Of a stretch of 38,682 nt of DNA, positions 1 through 38,682 are shown in pieces (position 1 is the stretch's first letter; each line of letters opens with the position of its first letter). Source of the DNA: a phage; the sequence record PQ400058.1; one strand, given 5' to 3'. The notes beneath the pieces are model-generated. The model worked only from the letters and a program-made list of their open reading frames with translations. It was not told where the DNA came from and ran no database searches. Made by a program: the position numbers and the translations under genes.

Positions 1-1967
1 TGAATGGTATCTTCCAGCACTTGTTGGCGGAAGCCGAACTCTTTGGACCCGTAAGCCAGCGTCATGACTGAACGCTTAGTCACGCTGCGAGTAACACCAT
101 AAGCCAGCCACTGACCAGCCAGCGTCTTGGTGCCCAGTTTGACTTTCTCAGAGATTTCACCAGTGTTCTCATCGGTCACGGTAACTACTTCGTTGTCGGT
201 CCCGTTGATTACATCTTCTTGCAGAATCACGTTGACTTTCTTAGCGACAATCCCGTAGATGTCCTGAACTGTTTCGCTAGGCAGCAGGTTAACAGCGCGA
301 CCACCTATCTCATCAAGGAGCATCGCGGAGAAGTGTTGAATACCAGAGCAAGACCCATCGAACGCCAGCGGAAGAGAGCAGTTGTAGCTTAAGCCGTGGT
401 GCTGTACCCCAGCGTACTCAAAGCAGAACGCAAGGAAGCAGAACGGAGAATCTTGCTCAGCCCACCAAGTGTTCTCCAGTGGAGACTTAGCGCAAGCCAT
501 GATGTTCTCGTGGTTGTCCTCAATGAACTTTATGCGCTCAGGGAACGGAACCTTATCGACACCCGCACAGTTTGCACCGTGGATTTTCAGCCAGTAGTAA
601 CCTTCCTTGCCGATTGGTTTACCTTTCGCCAGAGTCAGCAGGCCCTTGGTCATATCGTTACCTTGCGGGTTGAACATTGACACAGCGTAAACACGACCGC
701 GCCAGTCCATGTTGTAAGGGAACCAGATGGCCTTATGGTTAGCGAACTTATTGGCTTGCTCAAGCATGAACTCAAGGCTGATACGGCGAGACTTGCGAGC
801 CTTGTCCTTGCGGTACACAGCGGCAGCGGCACGTTTCCATGCGGTGAGAGCCTCAGGATTCGTGTCGATGTCTTCCGGTTTCATCGGGAGTTCTTCACGC
901 TCAATCGCTGGGATGTCCTCGACCGGGCAGTGCTTCCACTTGGTGATGACGTTGGCGACCGCTAGGACTTTCTTGTTGATTTTCCATGCGGTGTTTTGCG
1001 CAATGTTAATCGCCTTGTACACCTCAGGCATGTAAACGTCTTCGTAGCGCATCAGTGCCTTCTTACTGTGAGTGCGCACCAGCGCCAGAGGACGACGACC
1101 GTTAGCCCAATAGCCGCCACCAGTAATACCAGTCCAAGGCTTAGGAGGAACCACGCAAGGTTGGAACATCGGAGAGATACCAGCCAGCGCACCTGCACGG
1201 GTTGCGATAGCCTCAGCGTATTCCGGTGCGAGTTCGATAGTCTCAGAGTCCTGACCAACTACGCCAGCATTTTGACGATGTAAGCTAACCATTCCGGTTG
1301 ACTCAATGAGCATCTCAATGCAGCGAACACCTACATGAATGGAGTCTTCCTTGTGCCATGAAGACCACGCCTCGCCACCTAGTAGACCCTTAGAGAGCAT
1401 ATCCGCTTCGACAACCTGCATGAATGCTTTCTTGTAGACGTGACCTACTCGCTTGTTGAGTTGTTCCTCAACGTTTTTCTTGAAGTGCTTAGCTTCAAGG
1501 TCACGGATTCGACCAAAGCGCGCCTCGTCCTCAATAGCTCGACCGATTGCACTTGCTACAGCCTGAACGGTTGTATTGTCTACGCTCGTGAGGCAAGCCA
1601 GAGTGGTCTTAATGGTGATGTACGCTACAGCTTCCGGCTTGATTTCTTGCAGGAACTGGAAGGCTGTCGGGCGTTTGCCGCGCTTAGCTTTCACTTCCTC
1701 GAACCAATCGTTGATGCGTGCAATCATCTTAGGGAGCAGGGTAGTAATGAGAGGCTTAGCGGCAGCGTTATCCGCAACCTCACCAGCTTTAAGTTGACGC
1801 TCAAACATCTTGCGGAAGCGTGCTTCGCCCATCTCGTAAGACTCATGCTCAAGGGCCAACTGTTCGCGAGCTAAACGCTCACCGTAATGGTCAGCCAGAG
1901 TATTGAACGGAATAGCAGCCAGTTCGATGTCAGAGAAGTCGTTCTTAGCGATGTTAATCGTGTTCAT
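1..1967 (-). CDS. 1: T7-type single-subunit RNA polymerase (gene 1), N-terminal ~656 codons; truncated by window start, continues at window end
   Basis: ATG at 1967 with GAGG RBS; own translation MNTINIAKNDFSDIELAAIPFNTLADHYGERLAREQ...; frame open to position 1 (...SVMTLAYGSKEFGFRQQVLEDTIQ). Not in ORF track because no stop in window. Confidence 0.93.
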   Translation of the reverse strand, partial: MNTINIAKNDFSDIELAAIPFNTLADHYGERLAREQLALEHESYEMGEARFRKMFERQLKAGEVADNAAAKPLITTLLPKMIARINDWFEEVKAKRGKRPTAFQFLQEIKPEAVAYITIKTTLACLTSVDNTTVQAVASAIGRAIEDEARFGRIRDLEAKHFKKNVEEQLNKRVGHVYKKAFMQVVEADMLSKGLLGGEAWSSWHKEDSIHVGVRCIEMLIESTGMVSLHRQNAGVVGQDSETIELAPEYAEAIATRAGALAGISPMFQPCVVPPKPWTGITGGGYWANGRRPLALVRTHSKKALMRYEDVYMPEVYKAINIAQNTAWKINKKVLAVANVITKWKHCPVEDIPAIEREELPMKPEDIDTNPEALTAWKRAAAAVYRKDKARKSRRISLEFMLEQANKFANHKAIWFPYNMDWRGRVYAVSMFNPQGNDMTKGLLTLAKGKPIGKEGYYWLKIHGANCAGVDKVPFPERIKFIEDNHENIMACAKSPLENTWWAEQDSPFCFLAFCFEYAGVQHHGLSYNCSLPLAFDGSCSGIQHFSAMLLDEIGGRAVNLLPSETVQDIYGIVAKKVNVILQEDVINGTDNEVVTVTDENTGEISEKVKLGTKTLAGQWLAYGVTRSVTKRSVMTLAYGSKEFGFRQQVLEDTI

Positions 1968-2037: not shown

Positions 2038-3117
2038 TCAGCCCATTAGCATTGCGTCAAGTTTCTTGTCAATGTTAAGCGGAAGACCGTTAGCGATAGC
2101 CATCCGGTCAGCTTGGAACCAGTGCGCTGCGATTCGTTCCTCAAGCGCCTTAAAGTCCTTAGCTAACATGTTAACCCAGAGCATAGCGTTATCGGTCCTT
2201 CCTAGTACATCTACAGCTACCTCATGGTTACGTCGCTCTTGACGTTCAGCCATTCGCCACGCAGCAACCATTCGCTTGTGCTTCGCTTGGTGTGCTTTAC
2301 GCGCCTTGCGGTTACGGCGCTTTACTTTGCGTGCCTCCAATCGGCCAACATGGCGTACTTTACGGTCCTTAGCGCGGTCTATTGCCTTCTGGCGTGCGGC
2401 TTCCTCGACTTCCTTGATGAGTTCCTCAGGGTCAATGCTGAACGAGCCGCCATCTTTCTTCTGCGAGAATGACACGGGGTCGGTAATGAATGGCGTACCA
2501 TCGTCACTGAACATGATGTTACCGCTGTGCATGTCGAATGAAGCGATGCCCTCAAAGAACTTGCGGATTAGCTTGCAAGTCTCGACGAACTCGCCATCCC
2601 ATCCAGTTAACATATCGTGCGCATCTGATTTGCAGTCAATGATGTCGCTTGCAATCTCAGCGTATTTATAGTGCTCATCGTTATCGTAACGCTCGCAATC
2701 ATTCAGCGCATCGAGAACAACCGTGTAGCACCCAGCGTGACGCTGTACATCGTAGACGTTAGGGATACCAGCACGGCCCTGATACATGCGGCAGAATGCG
2801 GTATACGCAGCGCCTGAGTCCTCTTTCTTAAAGCCCACCTTAATCACTCTGTTGGGCAGCAGTGGATGACTATAAGCAGCCGAGAAGTGACCATTGCCAA
2901 GCATCTTGAAACCAGCGTCAGCAGTGAGACACTTCAAGGTAGTCCACCAATCTTGATGCTCAAGTGCCTGATTCAGTTCGGTTATCTCGCCATCGCATGT
3001 CTCGCTGTTTACCATCTCAACCAGTAAGTCGATAAGCATACTCTGACGCTTGTCAATTTCACAGATTGGCAGCGCTTTGATTGCGTCGATAGCGTTCATG
3101 ATGTCGGTAATGTTCAC
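2038..3117 (-). CDS. 0.7: gp0.7-like serine/threonine protein kinase (host transcription shutoff)
   Basis: Track ORF 2038..3174; likely start is GTG at 3117 ([14 protein letters not shown]...), giving 359 aa as in T7; ATG at 3099 is an alternative. Confidence 0.85.
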
Positions 3118-3136
3118 TTTGTGTGCTCTCCAAAAG

Positions 3137-3289
3137 TTAGATTTTGTTAATCTTGCGGTTGATGCGCAGTTCACGCTTAAGGCGTTCGATTCGCTGTTTC
3201 ATTGCGAAACCATCAGGTGTGCATACAGTTGCCCCGTTGGACGTGTGGATAGGCATAACGTAGTGTTTCATACCATAGTGTTTCAGCAT
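3137..3289 (-). CDS. gp0.6-like small early protein ([50 protein letters not shown])
   Basis: In-frame ATGs at 3289 and 3271, stop TAA 3137-3139; GGGAG about 10 nt upstream of 3289; sits between 0.5 and 0.7 as in T7. Confidence 0.55.
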
Positions 3290-5550: not shown

Positions 5551-7311
5551 TCACCACTCAATGAAAGACGTACCGTAACCCTCATCGTCCTCAGAGTATA
5601 CATCAACTCCTCCCACAGACATCTCAATGATGTGCGTAGCAGCGACCGTAGGGCGCATCATGTGCTCCTCAAGGAAGTCAGCAAGCACTTCACCTTCTAC
5701 CTTAACGGAATCCAACTGCATGGACTCGCGGAGATACTCAATGCCTAACGCAAGGGCATCCAATCGGTCATCATGTGCCAGAGCGCCTTTCTCACGAGTG
5801 ATACGGGTCATCTGGTAGAACAGTGAATACTTAACGTCATGCTTACCGTCTACGTCACGAGCGGACTGGTAGTCGGCCCTAATGACCTCATCACGAATGA
5901 CAAGGCGGTGAGTCTGCATGACTGGCTCAAGGGTATCACAAATACGCATCTCCTTCATACCACGAGCACGAATCTCCTCCATTGCACAGTTGTGGTGTTT
6001 AAGAAGGATAGGACTGAACACCTTACCAAACATGCCGTCACCGAAGTTACTCTCATAGACGACCGTCTGGACTCCCCATTGCTTAGCTTTCCTAGCGAGC
6101 AACTCAAGGGTCTTATCGGAGTAACCATCGCGGAAACCTCCAGCTTCCATTAGGTAGATGTAACCGTTCAGGGTGAACAGCACAGCGTAACCTGTTTCGT
6201 CCTTACCGCGACCACTAGGGTCAATGACCAGAATCTTCTGTTGGTACTGACCAGAGTTGTTGGAGCAATCATGGTAAGTATGCAGGTCATCACCCTTAAG
6301 GCCAACGTTAGGAAGGTCCTCAATGATGTTCTGACGGTTCGGAAGCCATTGGTAATGCATTGGAGCCTTCTCTAAGTCTAAGGCCGCTACGATAGCGTCA
6401 CGGAGCCTCAGAGGGTACTTCTCGGCATCACTCAGGTTCGGGTTAAGCATGAACTGTAGTGTGAAGCCAGCCTTACCGTATTCCAACTCACGCTCACGGA
6501 GGTCCTCTCGGTCGAAGCGCACAGGGTCCGTAGGAGTCCCGGCGAGGGCCTCAGGGTTCTCATCGTACTCAGCACGTAGCATAGGGGCAAGTCGCTGTGC
6601 GTAATAGAGGTTCTCTTCGCGAGTCCTTGGGTACAGAGCAGGCCAGATGATAGTGGTATACCCACGGTTATCCTCAAGTTCCTTATAGAGAGTCATCTCG
6701 GTCTGAGGTGTGCCAAGGTAGATAACACGAGAGGAAGGCAGCGGTTTAAGCAACGCAGCGAACTCCTGAACTAGAGTCCATAGCTTCTCACGGGCACCCA
6801 TAGTCGCACTGTTAGACGGAATCTCAACATCATCCGCAATGATAATGTCAGCACGGCTACCAGTTAACTGACCAGTGATACCTACCGATTTTACACTAGG
6901 AGAGTGGTCAGGGTTAGCTGGACCTACATCAAAGCTAATTACAGAATCACGCTGTCCGGGTCTTGGCTTCAATTCAGCAAGGAAAGGCAGCAGGTCAATG
7001 ATGTTCTTAATGAAGATGGAGTTAGCGTCTGCACGTTCCTTAGAGGCTGATACGATGAGTATCTTCAACTGAGGGTCTCTCCATAAGGACCACACAACGA
7101 ACGCACATGTGATGAACGACTTACCTATACCACGGAAAGCCTGTAGGATGAACTTCTTGTTGTCCCCATTCGCCAGTACCTTAGCCATGTCAATCTGACA
7201 CTTAGTGGGCACCGGAAGGTTTAACGCCTTCCACAATACGAACAGGAAGGCCACGAAGTCTCCTTTCAGTTGCGCCACTACGAGCGCATTACGATTGGAT
7301 TGAGTAGACAC
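5551..7311 (-). CDS. 19: Terminase large subunit (gp19)
   Basis: Track ORF 586 aa [22 protein letters not shown]...; GTG start at 7311 after TAAGGAGGT; same length as T7 gp19. Confidence 0.93.
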
Positions 7312-7320
7312 ATTACCTCC

Positions 7321-7764
7321 TTACTTGGTTTCCTGCTTACGTTGCAGTTCACGAATAGTATCCTGTAACGCACGAATCCATGCGTCACCCTTCTGGGTCA
7401 CTGCGAGAATACGCTTAGCATCTCGGTCGTCAAGTTCGGCTCGACCATCAGGCTCGAATCCACACTGACCATCGGAGGCTCCGGTAGTTTTGACTCTGAC
7501 GCGCAGCCGCTTATTGTCGCTACGCAAATCAGAAATAATCCTATCAGTGCTCCCTTCCAGCGCGGCAAGGTCTTCTTGATACTTAGCCGATATTTCATTG
7601 AGCGCTCTTTGAGTGCTCGCCGTAGCCTCAACTCTCTTAACGTACTCATTGAGTACCTCCTGTTTCCATTTAGCGTCCATTGAGTCTGACCCTAGATGCC
7701 ATCCTAATCCGAATAGCATCCCAGCGAGAACCCAAGGGATTAGCTTACGTAAAAATTCCAGCAT
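7321..7764 (-). CDS. 18.5: Rz-like i-spanin (gp18.5)
   Basis: Track ORF trimmed to ATG 7764 (MLEFLRKLIPWVLAGMLFGLGWHLG...), GGGAGG RBS 5 nt upstream. Confidence 0.85.
   Translation of the reverse strand: MLEFLRKLIPWVLAGMLFGLGWHLGSDSMDAKWKQEVLNEYVKRVEATASTQRALNEISAKYQEDLAALEGSTDRIISDLRSDNKRLRVRVKTTGASDGQCGFEPDGRAELDDRDAKRILAVTQKGDAWIRALQDTIRELQRKQETK
7398..7649 (-). CDS. 18.7: Rz1-like o-spanin lipoprotein (gp18.7), nested in the +1 frame of 18.5
   Basis: Track ORF 83 aa MSTLRELRLRRALKERS...LICVATISGCASES (lipobox-like); lies entirely within 18.5. Confidence 0.8.
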   Translation of the reverse strand: MSTLRELRLRRALKERSMKYRLSIKKTLPRWKGALIGLFLICVATISGCASESKLPEPPMVSVDSSLMVEPNLTTEMLSVFSQ

Positions 7765-8133: not shown

Positions 8134-8337
8134 TCACTCCTTATTGGCTTTCTTCCAGTCAATCATCTTATCGACTACCTTGGCACCAATCTGAACCACT
8201 GTGTAGGCGATAGCGGCAATATAGAACCACTCATTAAGACTCAGCCCGAAGAAAAGCCTCGCAGCACCATCAGCCACACCTGTTCCAACAATAGGTGCAG
8301 CCTTGACTAACTCGTTGTTAAAATCCAAAGACAGCAT
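8134..8337 (-). CDS. 17.5: Holin (gp17.5)
   Basis: Track ORF 67 aa MLSLDFNNELVKAAPIVGTGVADGAARLFFGLSLNEWFYIAAIAYTVVQIGAKVV... with hydrophobic segments. Confidence 0.88.
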   Translation of the reverse strand: MLSLDFNNELVKAAPIVGTGVADGAARLFFGLSLNEWFYIAAIAYTVVQIGAKVVDKMIDWKKANKE

Positions 8338-8390: not shown

Positions 8391-8915
8391 TTATTCCTCA
8401 GGCTTCTCAGGCCAGTCATAGAAAGGCAGTACACTCAGGTCTACTTTGTATACAGCAAGACGGTAAATTCGCCACGCGTTTAGGAGACCTTCTAATCCAT
8501 CCTCCCCAAGTGCCATGAAGTCAGCATACTGCTCAATCTTCTTGGAGGCCATAGAGACTAGACTAGCCTTCTGGTTCTCAAAGTATCGCGGATACCAAGT
8601 TAGCTTCTCACCATCCCACCACCACTGCATCATATTGTAACGAGAGTATTCAGCTGGGATTTCCTCAAGTTCAACAACACCAGCAGAACCCTGAACGGCT
8701 AACTCCTGAACATCCTGTTCACACTGAATTACCGAACCGTCTTTGGCATAGACAAGTTTCCATGTATCCTCACGGAATGTCTTACGTAGTTCATACCAGT
8801 CATTCCCATTCTCGTCCTTTGAGAAGCCAACTCCGTGGTCCAGAAGGTCTGCATTCTCTTTGGTGCGCTCTGGAATATAGTTTACGAAGTTCTTATAGTG
8901 GCGTAAAGTCTTCAT
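8391..8915 (-). CDS. Tail fibre assembly (Tfa-like) chaperone, 174 aa; not present in T7
   Basis: ATG 8915 with GGGGGAGGG RBS 16 nt after the gp17 stop; C-terminus ...LLNAWRIYRLAVYKVDLSVLPFYDWPEKPEE resembles the lambda Tfa C-terminus (...[29 protein letters not shown]) as recalled. Confidence 0.7.
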   Translation of the reverse strand: MKTLRHYKNFVNYIPERTKENADLLDHGVGFSKDENGNDWYELRKTFREDTWKLVYAKDGSVIQCEQDVQELAVQGSAGVVELEEIPAEYSRYNMMQWWWDGEKLTWYPRYFENQKASLVSMASKKIEQYADFMALGEDGLEGLLNAWRIYRLAVYKVDLSVLPFYDWPEKPEE

Positions 8916-8931
8916 GTTGTACCCTCCCCCT

Positions 8932-10608
8932 TTAGTAAATATTAAAGCGTTGACCATCGTTGCGTACATACTGCATAACACGCCACTGGCAACCATCTAC
9001 CGCACCATCAGCGTTACCGTTTGTGATTCCTGTGATCACCTTACCGCCACCATCTTCTATGCCGTAAGCATTCCACAGTTGCGACCAGTTAACTCCACCC
9101 ATCGCAATGTGGTTAACGGTATTTGCAACAAGCCAGCCAGCTAGATGACCATGACCACCCCATACAGAGCCTGCAATGTTTCCGTCAGTGGACATTGCGG
9201 CACCACCTGCCTTAATCGTAGTTGGGAATTGAACCTCGCCATTTGGGTTTAGCCAAATGTCATAAGATGTCGCTTGAGATGCTTCCGGTTTCCACCGGAT
9301 TAGGCCGTTGCCGTTCGTAGAACCACCTCGAACCCATCCAATTTCTAACCCTGCATCGTAGAAACTCCAACGAGTGTTACAGACCCATCCACCTTGGGTC
9401 AAATCACCCGGACCATATGCCACCGTCTTAACGGCAGTATTGGCCTGATTAGTAACACCTAGCGGTTTGTTGAATCCTTCTACCTGCAAACCATTGTAGC
9501 AATGCATGAAGTCCCCGAAGTGCATCTCCCACGTAGCCGAATCATTAGCTTTACTTTGAACCTGAAATGGAACATGCCAGTCCCCTCTATGTGGGTGCTT
9601 AATGGCCCAAAACGTATTTGATACATATTGTCCCTCAGCAGGGTTATACTCATGTACCATCTGCCCCATAGAGCCAGCTTCGGCAGTTGCCCTCAGGGTT
9701 GAAGCACGATTAGCAATAAGTTCACCGTTAAACTTAGCAGTAGCCGCCCACGAAACAACGTGGTCTTGGCTTACTTCCTCAATGGCACCTGCAAGTGCAT
9801 TCCAGTTACCAAGTTTGTCTGCCTCCAACTTAGCGCGGTCTGCTTGCTGTTCTGCCGAATGGGCAGAGTTAGCGGATGCCGTGGCATAGTTCTCAGCGTT
9901 TACCTCAGATTGATGCGCAGCAGTAGCAGAGTTACCAGCAGATGTAGCGTATTGACCAGCCGTATTCTTGAACTGCTCGGCTTCGTCTCTGAAACCCTTG
10001 GTCTCATCACGCCACTGCTTCGTATTCGTAGCGTTAGTGCTGGACTCGTTCTTAAAGCCCTCCGCTTGATTTCTGAAAGTCTCAGCCTCATTGCGGAACT
10101 GTAGGGCCTCATTACGCGCCTGCCATGAGTTCTGGTTCATGGTCTTAAGTTGACCAAACGGAACAGCGTCACGGTCATCCACGGCGTTCGCTAGGTTCAC
10201 AATTCGACGACCACGGGCATCCAAGTGACCATCATTATTGACACCGATAGTATCCGCAGTGAGGTCACGGGCCTCTTCTGCTACGTGCATCGTTTGAATC
10301 TGAGCGACGTTAAGGTCATATGCACGGAGGATTGAACCATCCGTAAAGTCAACCAATCGGTCTGTCGTGGAGGTTACTCGACGTAACTCAATGGTCGTGT
10401 AGCCATCAGCTGTACCCCAAGCCTTGGTCAGTGAGATGGTAGTGCGAGTAGCAAAGCGGTAGTCTGTATTAATAGTAAGGACCTTTCGGTCTACGCCAAT
10501 AAGGGTTACTACTACGAACTTACGGGCTAGATACTCAAACGGGATATTAAAATCACGAGTGGAGCCGTCTAACTGGTAAGTCAAAACGGTTTTAATTACG
10601 TTAGCCAT
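8932..10608 (-). CDS. 17: Tail fibre protein gp17, 558 aa: T7-like N-terminal attachment and coiled-coil region, non-T7 distal receptor-binding region
   Basis: Track ORF MANVIKTVLTYQLDGSTRDFNIPFEYLARKF...; matches recalled T7 gp17 to about residue 265 then diverges (…HPHRGDWH…GGHGHLAGW…QRFNIY). Confidence 0.9.
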   Translation of the reverse strand: MANVIKTVLTYQLDGSTRDFNIPFEYLARKFVVVTLIGVDRKVLTINTDYRFATRTTISLTKAWGTADGYTTIELRRVTSTTDRLVDFTDGSILRAYDLNVAQIQTMHVAEEARDLTADTIGVNNDGHLDARGRRIVNLANAVDDRDAVPFGQLKTMNQNSWQARNEALQFRNEAETFRNQAEGFKNESSTNATNTKQWRDETKGFRDEAEQFKNTAGQYATSAGNSATAAHQSEVNAENYATASANSAHSAEQQADRAKLEADKLGNWNALAGAIEEVSQDHVVSWAATAKFNGELIANRASTLRATAEAGSMGQMVHEYNPAEGQYVSNTFWAIKHPHRGDWHVPFQVQSKANDSATWEMHFGDFMHCYNGLQVEGFNKPLGVTNQANTAVKTVAYGPGDLTQGGWVCNTRWSFYDAGLEIGWVRGGSTNGNGLIRWKPEASQATSYDIWLNPNGEVQFPTTIKAGGAAMSTDGNIAGSVWGGHGHLAGWLVANTVNHIAMGGVNWSQLWNAYGIEDGGGKVITGITNGNADGAVDGCQWRVMQYVRNDGQRFNIY

Positions 10609-26379: not shown

Positions 26380-26493
26380 TCACTTAGTGTCGTGTAACGA
26401 CTTGATTATTCGGGCTAAGTCCCAAAGGCCCCACGCAATGAGGCACACTCCGAGACCACAAAGACCAAGACCAATATACGCTACGGTCTCCAC
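26380..26493 (-). CDS. 6.3: gp6.3-like small hydrophobic protein, 37 aa
   Basis: GTG 26493 with AAGGAG 7 nt upstream, overlaps end of gene 6; (M)ETVAYIGLGLCGLGVCLIAWGLWDLARIIKSLHDTK; no in-frame ATG available. Confidence 0.55.
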   Translation of the reverse strand: METVAYIGLGLCGLGVCLIAWGLWDLARIIKSLHDTK

Positions 26494-27383
26494 AGGTAAA
26501 TCTCCTTGTCAATAAAGTTGTACTCGTTGAACCGGAGGATGCGAGCCATCTGGCCCTGCTTGATAATATCCTCTTCAGTCATACCAGCCTTAGCACCAAT
26601 GGACTTAATGCAGTCCCAAAGCGTCTCATGAGGCTCAGGGTCGCGTTTAACCCATTTAGTGACCTCTTGGCCTTTGTTCTTGCCAGACTTAAGCACAGAC
26701 GTTTTAGGCTCGGTTATGAACGGGTTATTCAAGAAGTCCTCGGCAGTGTCTCCCCACCCAGCAATCCCTGAGTAACCATCGGTGATGTCACCTTTGATTG
26801 TCTGGAAGAGGTGCCACCAGTCAGCGGACTCTTCTGTCTGAGTAAGGATGTTACCAGTGGTACACCACAGGAAGTCACAGTTAGGTATGGTCTTAAAGTC
26901 CTTATCGCACGAGATGATTACAGCCTTACGAGCACCGAATGCAGACGGATTGGAGGCAATAACTCCCATAACGTCATCACCCTCAAGCATAGGCTCACGG
27001 ATGCAATAGAACTCTTCGCGCTCAAAGAGAGCCTCAAGGAACTCAAAGTAACCTACAGGTTTCTTAGTTGCCTTACGGTTGGCCTTGTAGTTAGGGTCCA
27101 CGAGTTCCTTACGCCAGTTCACACTATCGGTGAACGCAAGGACAATCGGAGCGCCTACCCAAGCCTTCTTGCGGGTCTCGTAGGACTTGATGGAATCCTC
27201 AAGAATCTGACGGGCCTTAGCGTGGTCACAGCAGCGGTGCCAAATCTCTTCCTCCCATGAGGCATCAAACTCAGCAGCACTCATTGCTTGGAAGACCAGC
27301 CAGTCACCGTCCATCACGAGGATACCCTTGTCATCACAGCCTTCGCGTAACTCATAAAATTGTTTAAGGTCAAGAAGTGCCAT
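26481..27383 (-). CDS. 6: 5'-3' exonuclease gp6
   Basis: Track ORF 300 aa MALLDLKQFYELREGCDDKGILVMDGDWLVFQ... Confidence 0.93.
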   Translation of the reverse strand: MALLDLKQFYELREGCDDKGILVMDGDWLVFQAMSAAEFDASWEEEIWHRCCDHAKARQILEDSIKSYETRKKAWVGAPIVLAFTDSVNWRKELVDPNYKANRKATKKPVGYFEFLEALFEREEFYCIREPMLEGDDVMGVIASNPSAFGARKAVIISCDKDFKTIPNCDFLWCTTGNILTQTEESADWWHLFQTIKGDITDGYSGIAGWGDTAEDFLNNPFITEPKTSVLKSGKNKGQEVTKWVKRDPEPHETLWDCIKSIGAKAGMTEEDIIKQGQMARILRFNEYNFIDKEIYLWRP

Positions 27384-33010: not shown

Positions 33011-33466
33011 TTATCCACGGTCAGAAGTGACCAGTTCGTTCTTCTCCCACCAACGCTTAAGGTCGAACGATGGGCAAGCCTTAGGTGCCACATCGTGATG
33101 TGCGCGAAGAACAGCGCCTTCGTACTTAGCCAGAAGTGTGACAAGCAGTGAGCGGAGGGATTGCATTTGGGCTGGCGTAAAGTTAGCGTCGAACTTGCCT
33201 TTATCGTCGATACCGCCTACAAGGCAGACACCAATAGAGTTGTGGTTGTAACCCTTAGCGTGAGAGCCTACAGCCATCTCATCTCGGCCTTCCTCCACAG
33301 TACCATCGCGCTTGATGATAAAGTGATATCCCACATCGAGCCAACCTTGCTCTTTGTGCCACTGGCGAATCTCACGGACACCAACATTCTGACTCGGCTT
33401 GGTAGCAGAGCAGTGAACAAAGATTGCGTCGGTAGATTCACGTTGTTTAAACTGTACACGAGCCAT
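33011..33466 (-). CDS. 3.5: Lysozyme / N-acetylmuramoyl-L-alanine amidase gp3.5
   Basis: Track ORF 151 aa MARVQFKQRESTDAIFVHCSATKPSQNVGVREIRQWHK... Confidence 0.95.
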   Translation of the reverse strand: MARVQFKQRESTDAIFVHCSATKPSQNVGVREIRQWHKEQGWLDVGYHFIIKRDGTVEEGRDEMAVGSHAKGYNHNSIGVCLVGGIDDKGKFDANFTPAQMQSLRSLLVTLLAKYEGAVLRAHHDVAPKACPSFDLKRWWEKNELVTSDRG

Positions 33467-33921
33467 TATTTCTTTCCTCCCTTCGATTGTTTCAGCTTGT
33501 CAAATGGCACCTCCTTTTTGGGTTCTTTGAGCCATTCTACAGGAATTAATTTGTCAGCAAACAGAATACCATGCTTCTCACACCATTCACCGTAACTGGT
33601 CGGAGACCCTTTGTACAGCTTGGTGCGCGAGCTTGAGAACACCAGTCGGATGTCCAGTTCAGGAAACTGTTCGCGAATCAATAAGTGTTTCTTTCGGTCG
33701 TCACTCTCCCATAAACCTTTGGTTTCAATAAAGATTCCGTTAGGCAGCAGGAAGTCTGGAGTATACACATGGTTGCTCGCAGGGACAACGTAAGGGATTT
33801 TCCACAGTTCATAGTCGAACTTAATTCCCTTACCCTCTAGCTGCTTAGAGACCTTATCTTCTAGGCCGGAACGGAATGTCCCGACCTTTCTGATACCACG
33901 CGCAGCGTATGCGCCAGCCAC
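33466..33921 (-). CDS. 3: Endonuclease I gp3 (Holliday-junction resolvase)
   Basis: Track ORF 151 aa (M)AGAYAARGIRKVGTFRSGLEDKVSK...; GTG start directly after the gp2.5 stop (TAAGTG). Confidence 0.88.
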   Translation of the reverse strand: MAGAYAARGIRKVGTFRSGLEDKVSKQLEGKGIKFDYELWKIPYVVPASNHVYTPDFLLPNGIFIETKGLWESDDRKKHLLIREQFPELDIRLVFSSSRTKLYKGSPTSYGEWCEKHGILFADKLIPVEWLKEPKKEVPFDKLKQSKGGKK

Positions 33922-34620
33922 TTAGAAGTCTCCGTCTGAGTCTTCTTCGTAAGAGCCTTCGTCGTCTTCGTCCCAGCTTTCTTCGTCGCGTGGTTTGCTC
34001 GCTTTGGCAGAACCAGAGGCAACATAGCCGTTCTCTTCAACTTCGTCAGCCCAATCGTCTTCACCACCACCAAAGGTAGCCAGTTCGACCAGCATTACGG
34101 ATTCCAGTTGCAGCTTAACGCTCGCACCTACAGCAGTGTTCCACTTGTACGGAACCAGAGAGTATTTGACTTTCAGTTTAGAGCCACCACCGATAATCGG
34201 AACGTCTTCCATCTTCTTACCTTTGGAGTCAACCACAACAAGATTGATGTGCTTGGTCTCTTTGGTCTTCTTGTCTTGGAAAGACGCGTAGCATTTGAAC
34301 TTAAAGGTAGTCGTACCGTCACCGTTATCGAAGAACGGCATGTCACCTTCATACGGTTTCAGCGGTTTCTTACCACGAGCTACCGCAGGCGGGTTCGCTT
34401 CGTATTCCTCAACGGCAGCAGCATAAGCCTCTTCGTGACACTTCACGATTTCATCGACCATGCGTTGGCAGCGCGGGTCTTTGTTGGGAATAGTCAGGTC
34501 AACTTTGTAGACACCGCGAGGGTTCCCAAAGCCACGCTCTTCGTTACCGTAGTCAGGCTTAGAGATGTAAGCGTAAGGTTCAGCAGTGCCCAGCGCAGAG
34601 GTGAAAATCTTCTTAGCCAT
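33922..34620 (-). CDS. 2.5: Single-stranded DNA-binding protein gp2.5
   Basis: ATG 34620 (MAKKIFTSALGTAEPYAYISKPDYGNEERGF...), acidic C-terminal tail ...EEDSDGDF; 232 aa. Confidence 0.93.
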   Translation of the reverse strand: MAKKIFTSALGTAEPYAYISKPDYGNEERGFGNPRGVYKVDLTIPNKDPRCQRMVDEIVKCHEEAYAAAVEEYEANPPAVARGKKPLKPYEGDMPFFDNGDGTTTFKFKCYASFQDKKTKETKHINLVVVDSKGKKMEDVPIIGGGSKLKVKYSLVPYKWNTAVGASVKLQLESVMLVELATFGGGEDDWADEVEENGYVASGSAKASKPRDEESWDEDDEGSYEEDSDGDF

Positions 34621-35975: not shown

Positions 35976-36995
35976 TTACATCTTCTCTTGAGGGTTGTCC
36001 TCGGTGCCACGGAAGCAGGTGAAGGAGGGGTGTCTGAGACTCCCATCGTTAGTTACCTCCATAAATCCAATCTGGCAAGCCCAGCCATTATAGTAGTCCT
36101 CGCCATGTTCTTTAACGTTAGCTGTAAATTCATCCATTAAGGCGCGAGAGATGTTATTGGCATCGACAAGACGACCAGTCTCAAGAAGCACCTTGAATCC
36201 AATTACCTTACCTTCGTTAGCAAGTCCTTCTGTTCCCCAGTTTACACCATTAATGATTCCGTCAGCTTCCTCAAGAGGCTTAAGTTTCCACCAGCCGGAC
36301 TTCTTACCGCGCTTGTAGATGCACATCGGGTCTTTCACAATGAGACCCTCATGTCCTTCTTCACGCTTCTTCTCGTACAGTTGCTGTAGTTCTACCATAT
36401 CGTAGACCTCGTAAGACTCAGCCGCTTGCCATTCGATTTCAGGGAAGTATTCCTGTAGCAGAGGCAGCATGTTCTTAACGTGTTCCTGCATGAGCAACGT
36501 CATGACATCACAGTCTTCCCCAGACTCCACGATGTGCAGAGGGAGGATAGCGTACAGTCGGACACTCAGATGTTTGGTATCCAACGCGAACTCAACCTTG
36601 GACCCCTTGAGTGGTGGTACACCGCCAACGTCGAACTCAAAGTTATTCTTGTTGAGCCACTTGGTACGCAGTAGGCCGGACCCTGTGTTAAAGTCTACGC
36701 CCTTGACCATTAGTTCCCCATCGAGCATAAAGCCATCCTTGTAGAAACAACGGTCATCGTTAAGCAGACGCTTCCAGCGAACATCAAACCCGTTTAAGTG
36801 CTCCAGTGCCGGAATCGTTTTAGATACACGAGAGAGCCAGCAACTGTTAGCTGTATTGTCTACGCAGATGTTACCGCGCACACCATCGTACTTAATGTCA
36901 GCGATAAGATACCCAGCGTTATCCAGAGCTTTCTTAATGGCAGACTCTACGAAAGATACTGCCTTGTATGGTGAAGTCTTAAAGTTAATAATCAT
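35976..36995 (-). CDS. 1.3: ATP-dependent DNA ligase gp1.3
   Basis: Track ORF 339 aa MIINFKTSPYKAVSFVESAIKKALDNAGYLIADIKYDGVRGN... (KYDGVR ligase motif I). Confidence 0.93.
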   Translation of the reverse strand: MIINFKTSPYKAVSFVESAIKKALDNAGYLIADIKYDGVRGNICVDNTANSCWLSRVSKTIPALEHLNGFDVRWKRLLNDDRCFYKDGFMLDGELMVKGVDFNTGSGLLRTKWLNKNNFEFDVGGVPPLKGSKVEFALDTKHLSVRLYAILPLHIVESGEDCDVMTLLMQEHVKNMLPLLQEYFPEIEWQAAESYEVYDMVELQQLYEKKREEGHEGLIVKDPMCIYKRGKKSGWWKLKPLEEADGIINGVNWGTEGLANEGKVIGFKVLLETGRLVDANNISRALMDEFTANVKEHGEDYYNGWACQIGFMEVTNDGSLRHPSFTCFRGTEDNPQEKM

Positions 36996-37405
36996 ATGTA
37001 TTTCCTCAGTTTGCCATTTCGTATGTAGTGTATTGTTGAAGCAGCCACATTAAGTGCCCTTGCTAGCTCCCTGCCGGAGCGAGGGTCCGTCCGTATCATA
37101 TCGACCTGCTCATTAGTTATCTTTCTAGCACCACGGCCTTTGATAGCCATGTCTCTAAGGTTGTCTGCCTGTGTGCCCTTGGTTAGATGTGCAGGATTTA
37201 CACACCACCTATTGTCACAGGAGTGTAGGACTATATCGCTCTTATTCAACTCACCGTTGAACAGAATGTACGAAGCCCTATGGGCATATATAGGCTTACC
37301 ATGCAGGCGGAACCGTCCGTAACCATTGGGCTGGATACTACCAATCCAACGCAAACAGTCACCACATGGTTCGGTCTTATTGTTGAATCGTTCTATGTCG
37401 TTCAT
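36992..37405 (-). CDS. HNH-family (homing-type) endonuclease, 137 aa; not at this locus in T7
   Basis: Track ORF MNDIERFNNKTEPCGDCLRW...HGKPIYAHRASYILFNGELNKSDIVLHSCDNRWCVNPAHL...; HNH motif; ATG 5 nt after phi1.3; stop overlaps ligase ATG (ATGA). Confidence 0.85.
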   Translation of the reverse strand: MNDIERFNNKTEPCGDCLRWIGSIQPNGYGRFRLHGKPIYAHRASYILFNGELNKSDIVLHSCDNRWCVNPAHLTKGTQADNLRDMAIKGRGARKITNEQVDMIRTDPRSGRELARALNVAASTIHYIRNGKLRKYI

Positions 37406-38016: not shown

Positions 38017-38682
38017 TTACGCGAACGCGAAGTCTGACTTAAGGATGTCTTGGAGATTCAAGTTACCTTTAGCCGGAAGTGCTGGCATTTTGTCCAATTG
38101 AGACTCATGCAACTGGTCAGCGAACTGGTCATAGAAGTCAGCAAGTACATCACAAGACTCATAGGTGTCCACCATCGTTTCACGCACAGCTTTGAACAGG
38201 TTGGCAGCGTCAGCCGGAATGGTCCCGAAGGAGTCGTGAATCAGTGCAAACGATTCGATTCCATACTTCTCGTGTGCCCACACTACAGTCTTACGCAGAT
38301 GGCTACCGTCTTGGCTGTGTACAAAGTTAGGAGCGATGCCAGACTCCTGCTTGTGAGCGTCAATCTCGCTATCTTTGTTGGTGTTAATGGTCGGCTGTAA
38401 GCGGAACTGACCAAGGAACATCAGGTTCAAGCGAGTCTGAATTGGCTTCTTGTATTCCTGCCACACTGGGAACCCATCAGGAGTTACCCAATGCACAGCG
38501 CAACGCTTGCGAAGAATCTCGCCAGTCTTCTTATCTTTGACCTCAGCAGCCAGCAGCTTAGCGGCAGACTTGAGCCAGTTCATAGCCTCTACAGCGGCTA
38601 CTACAGTCACGCTCACAGCTTCCCAAATCAGTTTCGCCATGTAACCAGCAGCCTGATTCGGTTGAGTGAACATAATACCCTT
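38017..38682 (-). CDS. 1: T7-type RNA polymerase (gene 1), C-terminal 221 codons; 5' part runs off window end and resumes at window start
   Basis: Frame open from 38682 (KGIMFTQPNQAAGYMAKLIWE...) to stop TAA 38017-38019; ends ...LQDILKSDFAFA. Confidence 0.93.
   Translation of the reverse strand, partial: KGIMFTQPNQAAGYMAKLIWEAVSVTVVAAVEAMNWLKSAAKLLAAEVKDKKTGEILRKRCAVHWVTPDGFPVWQEYKKPIQTRLNLMFLGQFRLQPTINTNKDSEIDAHKQESGIAPNFVHSQDGSHLRKTVVWAHEKYGIESFALIHDSFGTIPADAANLFKAVRETMVDTYESCDVLADFYDQFADQLHESQLDKMPALPAKGNLNLQDILKSDFAFA

Follow-up and report, generated by a model that had tools for sequence, protein, structure and literature searches.

The stretch of phage DNA analysed here, 38,682 nucleotides long (sequence record PQ400058.1) and referred to below as the window, carries gene 19 on its minus strand directly downstream of gene 18.5, and the following features lie at the junction of the two genes.

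5551..7311, minus strand: coding sequence of gene 19, 586 amino acids plus stop codon, 99% identical to T7 gp19 over residues 1-586
7309..7311, minus strand: GTG start codon of gene 19 (large terminase subunit), within TAAGGAGGTAATGTG
7315..7323, minus strand: Shine-Dalgarno sequence TAAGGAGGT of gene 19, a 9-nt uninterrupted complement of the 16S rRNA 3' end
7311..7313, minus strand: out-of-frame ATG sharing one base (G) with the gene 19 GTG, from sequence and translation
7278..7313, minus strand: short out-of-frame open reading frame (ORF) of 11 codons plus TAG, from translation
7321..7764, minus strand: gene 18.5 (Rz-like spanin), the upstream neighbour, 94% identical to T7 gp18.5

Positions 7309-7320 read cacattacctcc on the plus strand and GGAGGTAATGTG on the minus strand, and the start stretch of gene 19, taken codon by codon, is TAA GGA GGT AAT GTG. 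The TAA (7323..7321) is the stop codon of gene 18.5, which ends 9 nt ahead of the GTG in the same reading frame, and its three bases are also the first three of the Shine-Dalgarno sequence of gene 19. The product of gene 19 was matched by the Pfam families Terminase-T7_RNaseH-like (2.5e-39) and Terminase_6N (9e-05), both above the curated cut-offs; judged by these domains together with full-length homology to gp19, gene 19 is the gene for a T7-type large terminase subunit. A separate observation is that only three codons (GGA GGT AAT; 7312-7323, minus strand) stand between the stop codon of gene 18.5 and gene 19 in the shared frame; hypothetical read-through at this TAA would join the spanin to the terminase.

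The genome that carries the locus

The T7 record V01146.1 annotates 57 proteins, which we translated and, except for gp4B, which lies within gp4A, mapped onto the window. A match was found for 52 of these 56, all of the matched genes lie on the minus strand, and the T7 gene order is kept for nearly all of them, the exceptions being gp2.8 and gp7.7, which match only a displaced HNH ORF (36992-37405). Protein identity to T7 is mostly 85-100%, with a few proteins far lower, among them gp1.2 (38%) and gp16 (66%), and T7 genes 1.4, 3.8, 4.1 and 5.3 had no match in the window at E<=1e-3 in this protein mapping. Gene 1 (RNA polymerase) is split over the two ends of the window (1967..3 and 38682..38020, minus strand), and the window is therefore a circularly permuted assembly in which the terminal repeat has collapsed, rather than a natural linear genome; it is a reverse-complemented T7-like genome of the genus Teseptimavirus. 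Because the nearest deposited genomes are only ~93% identical in DNA, the phage is not T7 itself.

Two regions differ from T7 in content. The HNH ORF (36992-37405, minus strand) encodes a 137-amino-acid endonuclease and is placed between genes 1.2 and 1.3, a position without such an ORF in T7; it matches Pfam HNH_3 (8e-08), is 38-39% identical to T7 gp2.8 and gp7.7, and its TGA overlaps the ligase ATG (ATGA). In the tail fibre region (gp17; 8391-10608, minus strand), only the first 296 residues match T7 (91%), the C-terminal part being different; gp17 is followed by an extra ORF of 201 amino acids, carrying a tail-fibre assembly domain of the lambda gpK type (Caudo_TAP, 1.9e-09); this ORF is absent in T7 and present in Cedecea phage Yanou and phage PGX1. 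Together, the divergent C-terminal part and the extra ORF suggest a swapped receptor-binding module.

Codon 1 of gene 19 and its behaviour across relatives

The sequence-only reading that preceded this analysis held that gene 19 starts with GTG, and that an ATG two nucleotides upstream is out of frame and runs into a stop after 11 codons. Both statements hold in the window: an ORF of 586 codons runs from 7311 and aligns with gp19 from residue 1, and translation of 7313..7278 gives 11 residues and TAG. The GTG at 7311..7309 is the sole ATG, GTG or TTG between the in-frame TAA and codon 12, and in alignment it coincides with the GTG annotated for gene 19 in T7.

For comparison with relatives, up to 80 IMG/VR loci were fetched per gene for genes 19, 3, 0.7 and 6. 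At codon 1 of gene 19, GTG and ATG are exchanged between loci with identical flanks (L004 versus L011; L024 versus L025). An A/G exchange at a single codon with unchanged sequence downstream marks that codon as a start codon, since an internal codon would swap methionine and valine. Codons 2-11 are conserved at the protein level, with repeated synonymous changes among relatives, and codon 12 is ATC, ATA or ATT (isoleucine) in several of them. The exchange at codon 1 and the conservation of codons 2-11 as protein therefore fix the start of gene 19. The same kind of exchange, in the reverse direction, is seen at the holin gene 17.5 (8335-8337, minus strand), which starts with ATG in the window and GTG in T7.

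Clades also differ in how the large terminase gene starts, as seen in the sampled loci (L002-L081), a redundant set with many contigs drawn from a single metagenome. The T7 clade has GTG, a large Klebsiella (Przondovirus-like) clade has TTG, and a third clade, which has a distinct start context (tctactcaagcaaac), has ATG and occasionally GTG. In all clades sampled the start codon follows a strong AAGGAGG-type site.

Genes 0.7, 3 and 6.3 and the doubtful gene 19.2

Three further genes had been proposed to start with GTG, namely 0.7 (3117), 3 (33921) and 6.3 (26493), and alignments with T7 together with annotated relatives bear out all three. Another GTG, that of the doubtful gene 19.2 at 6665, was missing from that proposal, which also gave no strand.

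2038..3117, minus strand: gene 0.7 (protein kinase, 359 amino acids), GTG at 3117..3115, GGAG at 3131..3128, aligned with T7 gp0.7 residues 1-359
33466..33921, minus strand: gene 3 (endonuclease I, 151 amino acids), GTG at 33921..33919, GGAG at 33933..33930
26380..26493, minus strand: gene 6.3 (37 amino acids), GTG at 26493..26491, AAGGAG at 26507..26502, the same GTG being annotated in T7
6432..6665, minus strand: counterpart of T7 'gene 19.2', with a GTG start, within gene 19 in another frame, a doubtful gene

Residue 1 of T7 gp0.7 and of gp6.3 aligns with the GTG at 3117 and at 26493, respectively, and the BLAST alignment of gp3 begins at residue 2, so that residue 1 falls at 33921. No possible start precedes the GTG in the ORFs of genes 3 and 6.3. 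Gene 0.7 has an earlier in-frame GTG at 3174, which has no ribosome-binding site and lies within the end of gene 0.6. Codon 1 of gene 0.7 is ATG in T7, whose upstream region differs; among T7-clade relatives, either GTG or ATG stands ahead of AACATTACC, and the GTG is annotated in Pila, 3A_8767, AV103 and KKE5P.

The GTG of gene 3 directly abuts the TAA of gene 2.5 (33924..33922), and its product matches Pfam Phage_endo_I over residues 1-149 (6.7e-82). Relatives have either TAA-GTG or an overlapping TAATG at this point, followed by unchanged GCTGGCGCATACGCTGCG. The GTG of gene 6.3 is located within gene 6, 13 nt from its end, and it is kept in all T7-clade loci in which the gene could be located.

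The 19.2 counterpart is 74% identical to its T7 homolog, which also starts with GTG, against 99% overall for the enclosing gene 19. Substitutions that leave the gene 19 protein as it is change 19.2, an argument against 19.2 being a real protein gene, and the comparison suggests that its frame is under no selection.

Frequency of GTG starts

GTG starts were found in 4 of the 43 mapped genes (9%). Among E. coli genes that are not highly expressed, 335 of 4225 starts are GUG (~8%; PMC11052298). The share in the window is on a par with this rate of the host and shows no enrichment of GTG starts (P(X>=4)=0.45).

Ribosome-binding sites, spacing and the overlapping ATG

Each of the four GTG starts (genes 19, 0.7, 3 and 6.3) is preceded by a Shine-Dalgarno sequence. 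Measured as the distance from the last G of the GGAGG register to the start codon, the gap is 4 nt at gene 19 (9-nt match), 9 nt at gene 0.7 (GGAG), 7 nt at gene 3 (GGAG) and 7 nt at gene 6.3 (AAGGAG). Gaps of 4-10 nt are found in 42 of the 43 mapped genes; the 4-nt gap of gene 19 lies at the short end of this range and recurs at genes 17, 17.5 and 18.5, and the one gene with an even shorter gap, gene 0.5, is seemingly functional. The 9-nt match of gene 19 ties for the longest in the window. RNA structure was sought in the start region of gene 19, where the fold was no stabler than that of shuffled sequence (z 0.25); in the centroid fold, both the GUG and the ribosome-binding site are unpaired.

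The out-of-frame ATG lies only 2 nt from GGAGG, closer than the start codon in 42 of the 43 genes. With RBS Calculator-style spacing and start-codon terms, whose parameters do not represent a model fitted to this mRNA, the GUG is predicted to be favoured ~65-fold over the AUG at 7313, which would be used at ~1.5% of the GUG rate. Since gene 0.5 seemingly functions with a gap below 4 nt, the 2-nt gap of this AUG is disfavoured by the spacing comparison, not proven silent.

The ATG is replaced (AAC GTG) in phiA1122-type loci (L005 and L016), in Cedecea phage Yanou and in Shigella phages ESh3 and ESh6, and the overlap is likewise gone in L011, which has AAT ATG. The 11-codon ORF shows no sign of conservation as a unit among these sequences, its start ATG being missing from the phiA1122-type, Yanou, ESh3 and ESh6 sequences. 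On the coding strand, 3.5% of GTGs directly follow an AT, which corresponds to a chance of 13-16% that at least one ATGTG occurs among 4-5 GTG starts. A role for the short ORF as a regulatory overlapping or upstream ORF was considered and rejected, because its start is not conserved in close relatives and the 2-nt spacing is too short. The out-of-frame ATG is most likely an inert, incidental by-product of the sequence.

Start-site errors in deposited records

The concern that gene callers may mis-start these genes is well founded, as wrong starts are present in the deposited records KU927499.1 and OQ828305.1. In KU927499.1 (phage 64795_ec1), gene 19 is started at the codon-12 GTG despite taaggaggcaatGTG 33 nt upstream, and in OQ828305.1, gene 0.7 is started at an internal ATG, codon 7. 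A longest-ORF rule would err in the other direction at gene 0.7, placing the start at 3174, 19 codons too early. Other sampled records pick the GTGs correctly, and codon 1 of gene 19 is used by four of five sampled records as well as by the T7 reference. A labelling error of another kind occurs in the Shigella phage records ON528717.1 (1059-2819) and ON528719.1 (1807-3567; loci L089 and L090, respectively), in which the 586-amino-acid large terminase, with its start correct, is called 'terminase small subunit'.

Discussion

The GTG starts of this genome are real, ordinary and already known. We infer the use of these start sites, and the low use of the AUG at gene 19, from coordinates, reading frames, homology, ribosome-binding sites, spacing and the behaviour of codons across relatives; in the searchable literature, neither N-terminal sequencing or proteomics nor ribosome profiling was found for these starts. 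On this evidence, the four genes would use ordinary Shine-Dalgarno-directed GUG starts in a T7-like phage, a reading to which we assign a probability of about 0.93. At gene 19, the small ribosomal subunit would pair with UAAGGAGGU, a perfect 9-nt complement of 16S rRNA that includes the stop codon of gene 18.5, and this pairing would put the GUG, 4 nt beyond the GGAGG core, in the P site, where the initiator tRNA would read it as formyl-methionine. The weaker GUG codon would be offset by the strong ribosome-binding site, and hand-over from ribosomes ending gene 18.5, 9 nt upstream, possibly adds to initiation. The AUG, 2 nt from the core, would be too close for positioning and would arise simply from the spacer AAU followed by GUG. 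Genes 0.7, 3 and 6.3 would be initiated alike, with GGAG or AAGGAG 8-10 nt upstream and the previous stop codon within ~25 nt.

Other accounts of the same arrangement were weighed against this one. The AUG at 7313 might be a working decoy, taking occasional starts, yielding an 11-residue peptide and thereby lowering or tuning terminase output. As a start codon AUG is inherently superior to GUG, T7 and several T7-clade relatives share the AAUGUG arrangement, and the start codons of gene 19 tend to be weak across the family, as would fit low or tuned expression; however, the relatives that have AAC GTG (L005, L016, Yanou, ESh3 and ESh6) have contexts otherwise nearly identical, L011 has lost the overlap by way of AAT ATG, the gap to GGAGG is shorter than in nearly every other gene, and the calculated chance of an ATGTG is not low, so that we regard a decoy as very improbable. 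Even further from credible is a true start of gene 19 downstream in frame, at the codon-12 GTG or at the first in-frame ATG (codon 42), with the GTG at 7311 unused. One public record (KU927499.1) does annotate codon 12, and callers that prefer ATG would pick the later methionine, but no Shine-Dalgarno sequence stands ahead of codon 12, whereas the perfect UAAGGAGGU precedes codon 1, and codon 1 is the choice of most sampled records and of the T7 reference. Both downstream codons were rejected as the start of gene 19 on the grounds of the conservation of codons 2-11 as protein, with its repeated synonymous changes, and of the loss of the codon-12 GTG to isoleucine codons in relatives.

A further proposal would refine ordinary Shine-Dalgarno-directed initiation rather than replace it: the GUGs may be used mainly by ribosomes that restart after translating the upstream gene, and weak codons would for this reason be tolerated. 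The positions invite this idea, with the stop codon of gene 18.5 inside the ribosome-binding site of gene 19, that of gene 2.5 abutting the GUG of gene 3 (TAAGTG), the GUG of gene 6.3 within the end of gene 6, and the stop codon of gene 0.6 lying 22 nt ahead of the GUG of gene 0.7. However, nearly all genes in this compact genome are equally near their upstream neighbour, so that the GTG genes are not set apart, each of the four GUGs has a ribosome-binding site of its own, and four cases are too few for a statistical test; we consider predominant restarting possible, if on balance doubtful. We can also speculate that weak terminase starts after near-perfect sites (GUG in the T7 clade, UUG in Klebsiella Przondovirus, scattered GUG elsewhere) reflect a dosing of terminase that has been selected recurrently across the T7 family, with the AUG of the T7 clade adding a second layer by drawing off initiations; this seems to us unlikely.

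Ordinary Shine-Dalgarno-directed GUG initiation, the preferred reading, carries no new biology, and the T7 reference annotation has listed GTG for genes 19 and 6.3 from the first sequencing of that genome onwards. The value of the present analysis is in annotation quality only: on the minus strand, the starts to annotate, all GTG, are 7311 for gene 19, 3117 for gene 0.7, 33921 for gene 3 and 26493 for gene 6.3. Choosing ATG only and choosing the longest ORF are both unsafe, and deposited relatives contain both kinds of error.

Comparison with T7, related phages and bacterial initiation

GTG starts are annotated in the T7 record V01146.1 for genes 2.8, 6.3, 7.7, 17.5, 19 and 19.2, and the comparison with curated T7 start sites that had been suggested for the window thus divides: genes 19 and 6.3 agree, whereas genes 0.7 and 3 start with ATG in T7 and with GTG in the window. 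The latter two GTGs therefore belong to the lineage of this phage and are not curated T7 starts. At gene 19, T7 has the same GTG (at 37370, in the context aaggaggcaatGTG), the same overlapping out-of-frame ATG (aaggaggcAATGTG) and the same placement of the 18.5 stop codon inside the ribosome-binding site. The spacer differs by one base, GGAGGTAAT in the window and GGAGGCAAT in T7, and the match to 16S rRNA is therefore 9 nt in the window versus 8 in T7.

Gene 3 of the hand-annotated phages 13a and phiA1122 is organized as in the window, with GTG directly after the TAA of gene 2.5 and the N-terminus VAGAYAARGIRK, of which phiA1122 differs at one residue. In T7, by contrast, gene 3 has its own GGGAGG and ATG, and the GTG that starts gene 3 in the window is taken by the HNH gene 2.8, which is located between gene 2.5 and gene 3. 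Around the start of gene 3 (33919-33933, minus strand), the window and T7 (L001, 9857-10259) match through GACGGAGACTTCTAAGTGG and then diverge, and T7 gene 3 resumes ~400 nt further on, with its GGGAGG and ATG at the end of gene 2.8. It looks as if, from this alignment, the insertion of gene 2.8 in T7 took the ancestral start site of gene 3 and brought a replacement. Gene 0.7 has a close parallel in the likewise hand-annotated Serratia phage Pila, which, like the window, has GTG ahead of the same conserved sequence (AACATTACC), with the GGAG annotated as the ribosome-binding site.

Beyond the T7 clade, Klebsiella Przondovirus phages such as pK3-24 resemble the window in having a weak terminase start after a strong site (AAGGAGGTG), and they differ from it in that the start is TTG rather than GTG and has no overlapping ATG; in the published table of pK3-24, the terminase is the only one of 45 ORFs that starts with TTG (PMC11533715). 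The efficiency of start codons ranks AUG > GUG > UUG (PMC11052298). As in canonical bacterial initiation at GUG and UUG, in which the initiator tRNA reads the codon and pairing with 16S rRNA places it, the GUG starts of the window would be read and placed in this way; they show no difference in kind from canonical bacterial non-AUG initiation, and the sole local detail is the one-base overlap with an out-of-frame AUG at gene 19.
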